From: Parcubacteria group bacterium Gr01-1014_8
Lineage (GTDB): Bacteria; Patescibacteriota; Minisyncoccia; Phycocordibacterales; UBA2100
Reading direction: 5' to 3'
DNA length: 64,000 bases
Assembly: GCA_007376385.1 (NCBI GenBank)
Contig: VMGC01000003.1
Coordinates: 64,001 to 128,000, forward strand
This document shows, in pieces, positions 56,181 through 58,924 of this stretch. The translations under genes were made by a program, and so were the position numbers. The first letter of the stretch is position 1. The number at the start of each line of letters is the position of its first letter. The notes beneath the pieces are model-generated. The model had not been told where the DNA came from. It worked only from the letters and a program-made list of their open reading frames with translations, and ran no database searches.

Positions 56181-57458
56181 TCAAACGAGTGTCTCATCAA
56201 CAACGATCTGGCATTTTCCACGCGCTGTCGGCGGAATGTTCGCGACGAGTATTATTTTGACCGCAATAGAATTCCCAACTAACTCGCGAACGTTTGATTC
56301 GATTCTCTGTGTTGCATTGCCATCGAACAGAGCGCCCGGAACTATTCTCAATTCAAGTGCACCCTCGGCCGTTTTTGCGAACTGGTATTGGAACACGAGG
56401 TCCATGAACATATCCAGCGCTGCATCGAACTCCAGATGATGTATATCCCGCCCGCCGAAATTCAAGAACGCTGAATATCTTCCCTCGAACCATATTCTCG
56501 GAGTTTCAAGGCCGCATGTGCACCCCTCTAACGATATGACTCCGTGATCGCCTGTGTCATACCGAATGAACGGCATGTTGTAGTTCGTCAGGTCTGTCAG
56601 AATTACCCTTCCCCACTGCCCCGGGGGAAGTACTCTTCCTTCTTCGTCCACTATTTCCGCAATGATCGATTCGCTGTGCAGGTGCTGTCCATCGTGATAT
56701 GTGCATTCGCATGCCACAGCGGACATCTCTTCGATGCCGTACCGGTCATACACTTCGCTTTGCATTGCGGTTTCCAAAAATCCGCGCAGCGCGGGGGGAA
56801 GCATTTCGCCGAACGACACAATATATTTCGGCCGTATGCGGGGCAGAGAGAGGTCAGAGGACAATTTTTGCGCCAAAATAAACAGGATCGAAGTGTAACT
56901 CTCCAATACTTCCGGCTTGAATGACGCAAGCTTTCGTATCGCGTCTTCAGGATCGGACAAGAACTGTTTGACCGGCATAAAAAAACGGTAGCGCGAGGAG
57001 TTCGAACGTATCTTGATGCGGGCGACGCGAAGTTTTGAGAAGTCGAACATAAAAGCATGTTGCCAGGAAATGAATCTGAAACAGACCGATTCCAGATATC
57101 GCATATCAGTTGAATTGCGCCCGAATAAGAACGTGAACGGCTTCCCGCTCGTGCCCGACGTGTTATACCACCGTGAAAATATCTGCTGGCTGTTGTCGAT
57201 GAGCTCCTCACGCGGACGATCCAAAAAAGTTTCTTTTCGGGTTATCGGAAGCGAGGAGAGACCTTCCAAAGTGCGTATCTTTTCCGGCTCAATACCAGAA
57301 AGAGCATACAACTTTTTATACAAAGGTACGTTCGCCGCCGCATGCATGATGATCATCCGCAATCTTTTCTCCTGCCATCTTTGTATGGCCGAACGGGACC
57401 GACGATGCAAGAGATGAAAACGGAGATATTCGATGCTCTCGCGTATCTCATTGATCAT
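56181..57458 (-). CDS. PaaK/CapK/F390-synthetase-like adenylate-forming enzyme 1
   Basis: YNTSGTSGKPFTF (P-loop-like) and RYDTGD motifs of the phenylacetate-CoA ligase family. Confidence 0.7.
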   Translation of the reverse strand: MINEIRESIEYLRFHLLHRRSRSAIQRWQEKRLRMIIMHAAANVPLYKKLYALSGIEPEKIRTLEGLSSLPITRKETFLDRPREELIDNSQQIFSRWYNTSGTSGKPFTFLFGRNSTDMRYLESVCFRFISWQHAFMFDFSKLRVARIKIRSNSSRYRFFMPVKQFLSDPEDAIRKLASFKPEVLESYTSILFILAQKLSSDLSLPRIRPKYIVSFGEMLPPALRGFLETAMQSEVYDRYGIEEMSAVACECTYHDGQHLHSESIIAEIVDEEGRVLPPGQWGRVILTDLTNYNMPFIRYDTGDHGVISLEGCTCGLETPRIWFEGRYSAFLNFGGRDIHHLEFDAALDMFMDLVFQYQFAKTAEGALELRIVPGALFDGNATQRIESNVRELVGNSIAVKIILVANIPPTARGKCQIVVDETLV

Positions 57459-58663
57459 GTGATGTGCTTCGCCCGCTTCAGCGGGATGAATTTTATCGCC
57501 TTGCCGTTGGGTCCCTCCGGAATGTGTTCCACCACTTCCCAGGAAACTGCAGCGAGAGGGTGCAAGATGCTCTCAAGATTCATAGCCAGCTCTTCTTTGT
57601 AATTCTCAAAATAGGGACCAGGAATGACTTTGATGGTGAACGCAAAAGGCCCGGTCTGTACTATCTGAAATTGGTGCACCACTTTCGTATAGCGATCAAA
57701 TATCTGGGAAAAATCTAGCGATGATACCGTCCTTCCGTCCTCGAATCTCAAGAGTTCAATTTGGCGCCCTAGGATGCGTATTGTCCGCAGTGTCCGGCCG
57801 CATGAACAAGGCTCTTCGGAAATGACGCCCCTGTCGCCGGTATCGTAGCGAACGAACGGCATGACGCGATTATCGAATGTCGTAACGACTACTTTGCCCT
57901 CCTTACCATACGCGAGAGGTTGGCCCGTATCGTCAGTTATCTCGACATATGCCCATTCCTCGTTGATATGTAGGCGGTGCTGCTCGCATTCAAAAGCAAG
58001 CCATCCCAACTCACGGGTCGAATACGACAAAAAAACCTTGAGGCCAAAGGCTTGATTGATCAGTGCACGCCCTTGTTCAGGCAACGCTTCTCCGCCGGCT
58101 ACGAGGCCCCGGAGGGACAACGATATCCTGCGTTCATTCACGACACGCGCCAGTTCTATGAGGGAAGAGGTGAAACCGAACATCACGACTCCTCGGCCGA
58201 AGGAATTCAGGAAATCGCGGAGTTCTTCGACTCGATAACGTACGGCATTATACCCGCGTGAAAAAAAGACCCGCCCGCGCGGTATCGTCACCCCCATGCG
58301 CTCACTGACCCTCATCGACACCACCGGATACGACACGCCACCGGCCGCTGTCCGGAACATGCGGGCACATATCGCATACGAGCGCAATTCATGATGAGCA
58401 TCCAAATAAAAACAAAATGGCGTGCCTGTGGAGCCCGAGGTAAAATCGCGCGACCATTCATCATCACGATCGCCGTCTGTATAGAGAGTTTCAGAGACCC
58501 CGGTGAAATCTTTTTTTGATACGATAGAGATCCGAGAGAAAGGTCCATGTTCCAGCGACGACAGATCCATGGAGTGAACTAGTATCTTTTCTCTCCAGAA
58601 CGCAAATCTCTGCGTCGAACAGAGAAGCGCGGCAAGCCTCTTTTTCTGATATTCGATCATTCG
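57455..58663 (-). CDS. PaaK/CapK/F390-synthetase-like adenylate-forming enzyme 2
   Basis: FTSGSTGTPFCF and RYDTGD motifs. Its stop overlaps the start of enzyme 1 by 4 nt. Confidence 0.7.
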   Translation of the reverse strand, partial: RMIEYQKKRLAALLCSTQRFAFWREKILVHSMDLSSLEHGPFSRISIVSKKDFTGVSETLYTDGDRDDEWSRDFTSGSTGTPFCFYLDAHHELRSYAICARMFRTAAGGVSYPVVSMRVSERMGVTIPRGRVFFSRGYNAVRYRVEELRDFLNSFGRGVVMFGFTSSLIELARVVNERRISLSLRGLVAGGEALPEQGRALINQAFGLKVFLSYSTRELGWLAFECEQHRLHINEEWAYVEITDDTGQPLAYGKEGKVVVTTFDNRVMPFVRYDTGDRGVISEEPCSCGRTLRTIRILGRQIELLRFEDGRTVSSLDFSQIFDRYTKVVHQFQIVQTGPFAFTIKVIPGPYFENYKEELAMNLESILHPLAAVSWEVVEHIPEGPNGKAIKFIPLKRAKHIT

Positions 58664-58924
58664 CCTGCGCGGCCAATATTGGCTTTTTCCGAGCGCCCAG
58701 ATGTCAAATCGCAAAGGAATATACCGAACGGGACGGCACCAATATACGAGAACATTTGTCCATATTCTGTCGCTCCGCCACCACTTCTTCAAAAGCGTAA
58801 TGTACGCGAACATAACCCTCAAACTCTATCAAATGCGCGAGGATCAGAAAGTAACATGTATCCCCAAAAAGATATCAGATATCCCGTTCGCGACAGGTCG
58901 TCGCTATTCGAATATCATTTCTCT

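Follow-up and report, generated by a model that had tools for sequence, protein, structure and literature searches.

A coupled pair of PaaK/CapK-like ligases as an optional module of the YcaO/SagB peptide island of Parcubacteria

We investigated two overlapping genes, lig2 and lig1, that encode adenylate-forming ligases of the PaaK/CapK kind and lie within a YcaO/SagB peptide island of Parcubacteria group bacterium Gr01-1014_8. The analyzed stretch of 64,000 nucleotides (contig VMGC01000003.1, positions 64,001 to 128,000) is referred to here as the window, and all coordinates are given relative to its first letter. Comparison of gene context across related loci showed that the ligases are an optional module of the Parcubacteria island, which otherwise carries genes for YcaO, SagB and a precursor peptide. 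From the way precursor sequences vary with the ligases, we tentatively propose that lig2 and lig1 are a tailoring pair acting on the C-terminal lysine of the precursor, a reading that we regard as a real possibility, although short of probable. The genes on which the argument turns are as follows.

56181..57458, minus strand: lig1, downstream PaaK/CapK-like ligase, 425 aa
57455..58813, minus strand: lig2, upstream PaaK/CapK-like adenylate-forming ligase, 452 aa from ATG 58813
50127..50453, minus strand: pre108, type-A precursor candidate
53475..54902, plus strand: YcaO cyclodehydratase-type protein, 475 aa (PF02624, E 3e-44)
54905..55633, plus strand: SagB-type flavin mononucleotide (FMN) dehydrogenase, azoline to azole (TIGR03605, 123.7 bits, above the cut-off of 78.4; Pfam Nitroreductase)

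Gene context of the ligases and the precursor C-terminus

Loci, numbered here with the prefix L, were fetched by exact protein, from species genomes and from metagenomes, and all of their open reading frames (ORFs) were scanned with the window proteins. A ligase locus was counted if it held a lig1 or lig2 orthologue of at least 300 bits and had usable flanks; L007, L084 and L088, whose flanks were too short, were left out. With a distance limit of 10 kb, YcaO and/or SagB accompanied the ligases in 17 of the 21 loci with adequate flanks, the window included (window, L001, L003, L005, L009, L019, L086, L087, L089, L090, L112, L161, L164, L170, L171, L172 and L173). The link is kept through rearranged gene order. 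Ligases and YcaO/SagB are convergent in the window and L001, and in L003, L009, L016 and L173 the ligases are part of a YcaO-SagB(-propeller) run on one strand; the order is YcaO-SagB-lig2-(AdoMet decarboxylase)-lig1 in L003, YcaO-SagB-propeller-lig1 in L009 and YcaO-SagB-x-lig2-lig1 in L173. YcaO was absent from the loci of all of the ∼130 relatives from outside the Candidate Phyla Radiation (CPR).

The reverse test took six YcaO orthologues on long contigs (L164 to L169) and scanned these for ligases, which were detected in L164 and were missing from the five others. L165 to L169 have YcaO, SagB and a Cys-bearing precursor candidate with no ligase within 10 kb; they mostly also carry the genes for two anchored island proteins, p380 and the TPR protein, and sometimes that for the beta-propeller fusion. 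The entire interval between the ribosomal protein genes rplC and rpsJ, which border the island in the window, is visible in L168 and L169 and holds no ligase. Since five of the six YcaO islands lack them, the ligases are an accessory module and not an obligate partner of YcaO, and we rejected the idea that they belong to an obligate island core. L085 has the opposite composition: next to rpsJ it carries lig2, lig2, lig1, mem397, p380, TPR and p480, without YcaO, SagB or propeller. Strict co-occurrence of ligases and propeller was also rejected, as L166, L167 and L169 have the propeller but no ligases, and L003, L085 and L173 have ligases but no propeller.

We then compared the precursors. Type-A precursors were called by a transmembrane helix, an A-x-A-[DE]-x-P boundary and a tail rich in Cys, Gly, Ser and Asp. 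Their leader, as noted in the window, L001 (16735..16992), L003 (5562..5798), L165, L166, L167, L170, L172 and L173, is unusual in that a basic N-terminus and a single transmembrane helix precede the boundary motif and the tail. In pre108, the basic N-terminus and the one helix are followed by the boundary ARADAP and then by the core GSCSSCSSCTSDGCSDGGCGGCAGDAGDAGDAGAGDCCDGCAGGSGGSGGK, which is rich in Cys, Ser, Gly and Asp and ends in ...GGSGGSGGK. A homologue search with pre108 retrieved pre108 alone. A C-terminal lysine was present in the precursors of 9 of 12 ligase-bearing loci, compared to 0 of 5 ligase-free loci (one-sided Fisher p ∼0.009, calculated by hand for these 17 loci and uncorrected for relatedness). 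The precursor ends were as follows.

Ligase-bearing, terminal Lys: window GGK, L001 GGK, L003 EGK, L005 GTK, L085 VGK
Ligase-bearing, terminal Lys, continued: L161 SGK, L170 GGK, L172 GGK, L173 DSK
Ligase-bearing, other ends: L112 GE, L164 CE, L171 TG
Ligase-free: L165 GS, L166 LY (two peptides), L167 NG, L168 ND, L169 DS

On a tree of YcaO, the ligase-free loci are scattered among the ligase-bearing ones. The precursor of L085 has kept the leader, has no Cys core and ends in ...GGTANAETVGK. Thus, the Cys core tracks YcaO and SagB, and the terminal Gly-Lys tracks the ligases, which suggests that the ligases act on the C-terminal lysine of the precursor.

By this proposal, each ligase would activate a carboxylate as acyl-AMP and hand the acyl-AMP to a nucleophile, and the target would be the precursor peptide, with the C-terminal (Gly-)Lys as the likeliest site. 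One option is that a small activated acid acylates the lysine at its epsilon-amine; the other is that the precursor's own terminal alpha-carboxylate is adenylated and ligated. The ligase step would take place in the cytoplasm before export of the tail, and would be independent of azole formation by YcaO and SagB.

The paired enzymes

The original prediction described two paralogous ORFs of the PaaK family with SGT(S/T)GxP and RYDTGD motifs, translationally coupled through a 4-nt overlap, and this description holds. Both ORFs were recovered on the minus strand, and lig1 is identical to an NCBI protein of the Gr01-1014_8 metagenome-assembled genome. The two proteins share 31% identity across 324 residues (E 3e-36), and the motifs are TSGTSGKP (residues 100 to 107) and RYDTGD (299 to 304) in lig1, and TSGSTGTP and RYDTGD in lig2. 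At the junction, which reads ATC ACA TGA TCA ATG, the start of lig1 overlaps the stop of lig2 in an ATGA at 57455..57458. Because a GAGGG ribosome-binding site stands before ATG 58813, this is the likelier start of lig2, whose ORF is also open from TTG 58822 (455 aa). The N-terminus of lig2 carries a conserved, aromatic-rich extension. Outside the window, a 4-nt overlap from lig2 to lig1 was found in 11 of 18 junctions, as ATGA in L001, L007, L019, L085, L086, L089, L090, L170 and L172 and as TTGA in L173, and the order lig2-then-lig1 is the rule among the loci. This lasting pairing and the translational coupling suggest that lig2 and lig1 probably form a heteromer. PaaK-type enzymes are dimers (PMC7204872).

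Assignment to the family lies far beyond chance and rests on profile, structure and motif evidence, which together bear out the earlier call of PaaK/CapK-family adenylating enzymes. Our Pfam scan gave a sub-threshold AMP-binding match for lig1 and no match for lig2; in precomputed Pfam annotation, lig1, lig2 and their relatives carry CapK_C as a C-terminal domain. The best NCBIfam match of both proteins was the DVU_1553 family (NF045666), with 147.6 bits for lig1 and 98.7 bits for lig2, which do not reach the cut-off of 300. A hidden Markov model profile built from 41 lig1 relatives matched the Bacteroides PaaK-like ligase 4R1L with an E value of 1.9e-43 over profile positions 17 to 406 of 428, followed by ClxA, PaaK1/2, HCL, AjiA1 and NatL2. 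An AlphaFold2 model of lig1 (mean predicted local distance difference test score 91.8, predicted template modelling score 0.89) has the compact two-domain ANL fold of the PaaK-like subfamily (COG1541), and a Foldseek search of the PDB with this model returned BT_0428, PaaK1/2, HCL, ClxA, AjiA1 and NatL2 with E values from 1e-27 to 1e-19.

Conservation was assessed in 23 sequences of the lig1 clade and 26 of the lig2 clade. Residues T100-P107, R299-D304, G326-R327 (the hinge) and G414-K415 of lig1 are invariant or at least 95% conserved, and the P-loop, RYDTGD, CxCG, GR and GK are all conserved in the 26 lig2 orthologues. As the adenylation residues are kept in both clades, both ligases are predicted to be active adenylate-forming enzymes.

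The best sequence and structure matches of lig1 are PaaK1/PaaK2 of B. cenocepacia (2Y27/2Y4N/2Y4O) and BT_0428 of Bacteroides (4R1L). The window ligases resemble these PaaK-type enzymes in length (∼430 aa) and in the compact ANL fold of two domains, and have in common with them the P-loop, the motif (R)Y-x-T-x-D, the GR of the hinge and the C-terminal catalytic Lys. Identity to the PaaK type is 21 to 23%, however, and the window ligases differ in being a fixed, coupled pair in a YcaO island with no paa operon. The ligases NatL2, AjiA1 and ClxA of benzoxazole synthesis, and BagE/FevW, belong to the same structural family as lig1 at 17 to 20% identity; the two window ligases scored 46 and 53 bits against the BagE/FevW family, whose cut-off of 800 was not reached. 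NatL2-type ligases use aminohydroxybenzoates, whereas no genes for the biosynthesis of such acids stand beside the window ligases. A C252/H255/H259...C313-x-C315 motif of lig1 (CxxH...CxCG) is common to BT_0428, ClxA and NatL2, and its CxC part is missing from Burkholderia PaaK. By analogy, we infer a structural metal site at this motif of lig1: a Zn ion has been described for NatL2 (PMC7204872), and the motif would form the Zn site there. With 425 aa compared to 436-437 aa for NatL2, lig1 is expected to lack the ∼30-residue C-terminal extension that locks NatL2 closed. PaaK-type enzymes can use an O or N nucleophile in place of CoA as the acceptor for the acyl-AMP, and NatL2, itself of the PaaK type, forms an ester (PMC7204872).

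Homologues of lig1 and lig2 at 35 to 56% identity are numerous, and every one that was named by its source or traced to a named genome belongs to the Patescibacteria/CPR (Kaiserbacteria, Paceibacterota, Moranbacteria, Saccharibacteria, Sungbacteria and unclassified Parcubacteria). Relatives from other phyla and from archaea reach about 33% identity at most. A neighbor-joining tree of 218 ligases, which took in the ligases of all fetched loci and is crude and without support values, placed lig1 and lig2 in two sister CPR clades. The two ligases are old sister paralogues that have been kept together, in a lineage seen here in CPR loci only. We note that an expansion outside the CPR was also seen: L050 (Dehalococcoidia) and L146 have rows of as many as seven PaaK/CapK-like ligase paralogues.

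The island between rplC and rpsJ

The whole YcaO island of the window lies in the interval from rplC to rpsJ (46317..62867). Its remaining genes and its borders are as follows.

45708..46316, minus strand: rplC, ribosomal protein L3, island border (the ORFs that phmmer matched in L165 and L167 to L169 are annotated Ribosomal_L3)
46673..47107, minus strand: p144, small anchored or secreted protein
47112..48134, minus strand: p340, anchored protein
48116..48982, minus strand: TPR protein, N-terminally anchored, conserved in the island (generic TPR matches only in Pfam and NCBIfam)
48979..50121, minus strand: p380, N-terminally anchored helical protein, conserved beside the precursor
50528..51721, minus strand: mem397, polytopic membrane protein whose C-terminal domain contains Cys
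51720..53429, plus strand: fusion of a phosphoribosyltransferase-like domain and a PQQ/ACSF4-type beta-propeller, 569 aa
55731..55931, minus strand: cys66, type-B small secreted Cys-rich protein, 66 aa (Sec-signal-like N-terminus, 7 Cys)
56057..56085, minus strand: sigma-70-like promoter match upstream of cys66 (TTGACT-17-TATAAT, 11/12; a consensus match only)
58925..60121, plus strand: p480, N-terminally anchored Cys/His-rich repeat protein, divergent from lig2 (likely start ATG 58925)
60031..62820, plus strand: Lnt-like membrane protein of 929 aa with an N-acyltransferase region (TIGR00546, 90.2 bits, below the cut-off of 132.9)
62868..63263, minus strand: rpsJ, ribosomal protein S10, the other island border (82% identical to an L003 ORF annotated Ribosomal_S10)

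Both ribosomal borders are also visible in L168, L169 and L173, and a single one adjoins the island in L003, L085, L112, L164, L165, L167, L170 and L172. The genes for the precursor, p380, TPR, p340 and p144 are co-directional with rplC and directly upstream of it, and may thus be read together with the ribosomal operon. The p380 and TPR proteins, whose genes are always adjacent to that of the precursor, are themselves N-terminally anchored. YcaO scored 186.6 bits against the SagD family TIGR03604, below its cut-off of 219, and no E1-like or ThiF-like (Ocin-ThiF-like) YcaO partner was recognized in the island by the Pfam and NCBIfam scans. Neither database gave a match for p144, p340, p380, mem397, pre108, cys66 or p480. 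PADLOC returned no match for lig1, lig2, the propeller fusion, p480, mem397, p380, YcaO or SagB, and on this ground a role of the ligases as a component of anti-phage defense was rejected.

The propeller fusion is the best-conserved protein of the island (475 to 636 bits in most loci and 417 in L166). According to the Pfam description, eukaryotic ACSF4 combines a propeller of this type with an adenylating enzyme in a fusion, and the window carries a phosphoribosyl pyrophosphate synthetase gene at 3375..4382 on the minus strand. Homologues of p480 often adjoin lig2, with a PP-loop protein in between in L085, L161 and L172, and p480 has a repeated Cys/His-rich motif (CHxxGH, CYHG) in common with the C-terminal third of the Lnt-like protein. 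The cys66 gene is directly downstream of lig1 on the same strand, and the promoter-like site ∼125 nt upstream of it suggests that cys66 is transcribed on its own and not merely with the ligases.

The Kaiserbacteria contig of L167 holds two YcaO islands ∼9 kb apart (9965..11464 and 19104..20582), each with TPR, p380 and SagB-like genes. Elsewhere in the window, an 883-aa acyl-CoA-synthetase-like AMP-binding protein (18476..21127, minus strand) has a GIY-YIG nuclease domain between its AMP-binding and AMP-binding_C domains, which may be an insertion of the homing-endonuclease type. A 941-aa protein with TraG/TraD-type coupling-protein domains (29104..31929, minus strand) hints at an element resembling type IV secretion or conjugation systems.

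Alternative explanations and significance

Several observations weigh against an action of the ligases on the precursor. The correlation with the terminal lysine covers 17 loci only, with three exceptions among the ligase-bearing ones (L112, L164 and L171) and no phylogenetic correction. Ligases occur without YcaO within reach in L006, L008, L010 and L085, and ligases were found in only one of the six YcaO islands of the reverse test. Because the island forms a variable hot spot at rpsJ/rplC, its position might explain part of the co-location. The pockets of PaaK enzymes usually accept small aryl or alkyl acids and not peptide termini. Finally, deeper members of the ligase clade (L010, L012, L014, L057, L062 and L078) lie amid sugar-modification genes. 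The original prediction, which placed the ligases beside YcaO and Cys-rich peptides and supposed that they could acylate or ligate peptides, was right about the neighborhood, where YcaO, SagB, pre108 and cys66 are indeed close by. Its chemical part stands on less firm ground: the link between precursor lysine and ligases speaks for it indirectly, and the optional nature of the ligases and the glycan genes near their deeper relatives speak against it.

The strongest competitor, which we nevertheless consider somewhat unlikely, is that the ligases are CapK-like envelope or glycan enzymes that modify a surface polymer by N-acylation of amino sugars or amidation of uronic acids, and that share a variable cell-surface island with the YcaO genes without a functional link to them. 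We know of no established reaction for CapK itself. In its favor are the genes beside the deeper relatives, which encode a DegT/EryC1 aminotransferase, SDR, GT2/glycerophosphotransferase, nucleotidyltransferase, KAS III, methyltransferases and a GNAT-like protein; the CapK_C label of the precomputed Pfam annotation, the five of six YcaO islands without ligases and the many membrane-anchored or secreted island proteins point the same way. A sulfotransferase with synthesis of 3′-phosphoadenosine-5′-phosphosulfate near the ligases of L170 and an arylsulfotransferase near those of L001 add to this. Other neighbors in the core clade are methyltransferases and a ∼300-aa PP-loop protein (L085, L112, L161, L171 and L172); these variable neighbors fit a tailoring-rich peptide cluster and a surface-modification island alike, and a tblastn search of the window found no copy of the PP-loop, methyltransferase, AdoMet decarboxylase or kinase genes that adjoin ligases in other loci. 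However, although the window ligases carry CapK_C, the genes that they adjoin are those for YcaO/SagB and peptides, and no sugar-nucleotide or glycosyltransferase genes stand next to the ligases in the window or in their closest relatives, in contrast to the deeper CPR relatives. The core clade also stays beside YcaO/SagB through several rearrangements, at times within that operon, and the precursor C-terminus co-varies with the presence of the ligases.

It is improbable, in our assessment, that the ligases instead act on small Cys-rich proteins of the cys66 type with a Sec signal, for example through acylation, ahead of export, of a Cys thiol or of the N-terminus. In the window, L001, L007, L009, L084 and L089, an ORF with a signal peptide and at least four Cys is found no more than 700 bp from the ligase block, and L170 and L172 have ORFs that resemble these; the window has cys66 after lig1 in the same orientation, and a weak cys66 homologue occupies the equivalent position in L001. 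A biochemical precedent is LuxE, a PaaK-related enzyme that adenylates an acid and then thioesterifies a protein cysteine (PMC9157457), and LuxE also serves more generally as a precedent for window ligases whose acceptor would be a protein or peptide. LuxE lacks the C-terminal subdomain (PMC9157457) that lig1 has in its model, and no LuxC/LuxD-type genes stand beside the window ligases. The small proteins have little sequence in common and no shared terminal motif, and a similar protein is encoded in L167, which has no ligases, while one in L164 adjoins the propeller gene and not the ligases. Moreover, cys66 has its own strong promoter-like site in the window, and these genomes may just have many small secreted proteins of this kind. 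We regard them as weaker substrate candidates than precursors of the pre108 type.

Very little speaks for the reading as true catabolic CoA ligases for phenylacetate or aryl acids, or as F390 synthetases, and we hold this to be very improbable. There is real similarity at the level of the family, and the protein is annotated in databases as phenylacetate-CoA ligase, but all PaaK and F390 cut-offs were far from reached, which rules out orthology to either: lig1 and lig2 scored 100.4 and 41.2 bits against PaaK (TIGR02155, cut-off 646.3), 104.8 and 65.8 bits against haloarchaeal PaaK (NF041878, cut-off 700), 66.3 and 52.6 bits against the F390 synthetase FtsA (TIGR03335, cut-off 458.7), and 50.5 and 58.5 bits against the F390-synthetase-related family (TIGR02304, cut-off 251.9). 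Scans of ∼40 window ORFs against Pfam or NCBIfam revealed no paa gene, in agreement with the original prediction that the ligases lack a paa catabolic context, and the clade was seen in CPR loci only, tied to the island. Clear orthology to PaaK together with a paa operon, which the original prediction had named as its refutation, was thus not seen in the window. There is next to no chance that the ligases stand in for the missing E1-like/ThiF-like partner needed by YcaO for cyclodehydration: no E1-like or Ocin-ThiF-like gene was recognized in the island, whose sole other ATP-using enzymes are the ligases, but the reverse context test effectively refutes such a role, with YcaO, SagB and a Cys-bearing precursor and no ligase within 10 kb in L165 to L169, and L085 keeps ligases without YcaO.

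Returning to tailoring of the precursor, we compared the island with described systems. Clusters of the linear azol(in)e-containing peptide (LAP) type, with YcaO, nitroreductase and a Cys/Ser-rich precursor, are known in the CPR including Parcubacteria (Sharrar et al. 2020, PMC7298704). As far as the consulted parts of that paper go, the modification genes of these LAP or thiazole/oxazole-modified microcin (TOMM) clusters are YcaO, nitroreductase and peptidase, with no ligase, and neither a leader with a transmembrane helix nor a location at rpsJ/rplC nor a ligase module is among the features described. A full-text literature search found no report of an association between YcaO and such ligases, the one paper that mentions phenylacetate-CoA ligase along with YcaO treats a different subject, and PaaK together with ribosomally made peptides that are modified after translation (RiPPs) appeared in incidental mentions only; the TOMM landscape paper of 2015 is without the terms CoA ligase, AMP-binding and adenylat-. 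The ligases thus represent a known kind of enzyme in a new form, paired and lineage-specific, and their gene context is, to our knowledge, undescribed.

The full proposal, which as a whole we consider rather unlikely, is that a coupled heteromeric ligase pair carries out an undescribed RiPP tailoring reaction across Parcubacteria, acylating or ligating the C-terminal Gly-Lys of a membrane-anchored azole peptide encoded between rpsJ and rplC. The position at rpsJ/rplC suggests constitutive decoration of a surface peptide and not an antibiotic. Many Parcubacteria keep the island at one of the most conserved positions of the bacterial chromosome, and the CPR have tiny genomes with few recognizable biosynthetic genes. 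If the glycan explanation were true, the ligases would be an ordinary lineage-specific CapK-like pair in a hot spot of surface modification. If the proposal is true, PaaK-type adenylating enzymes would join the chemistry of RiPP tailoring, and the CapK-like family, whose members are mostly without a known reaction, would gain a testable substrate in the form of a short peptide ending in Gly-Lys. It would also help to explain the products of the azole-peptide clusters that are widespread in the CPR.

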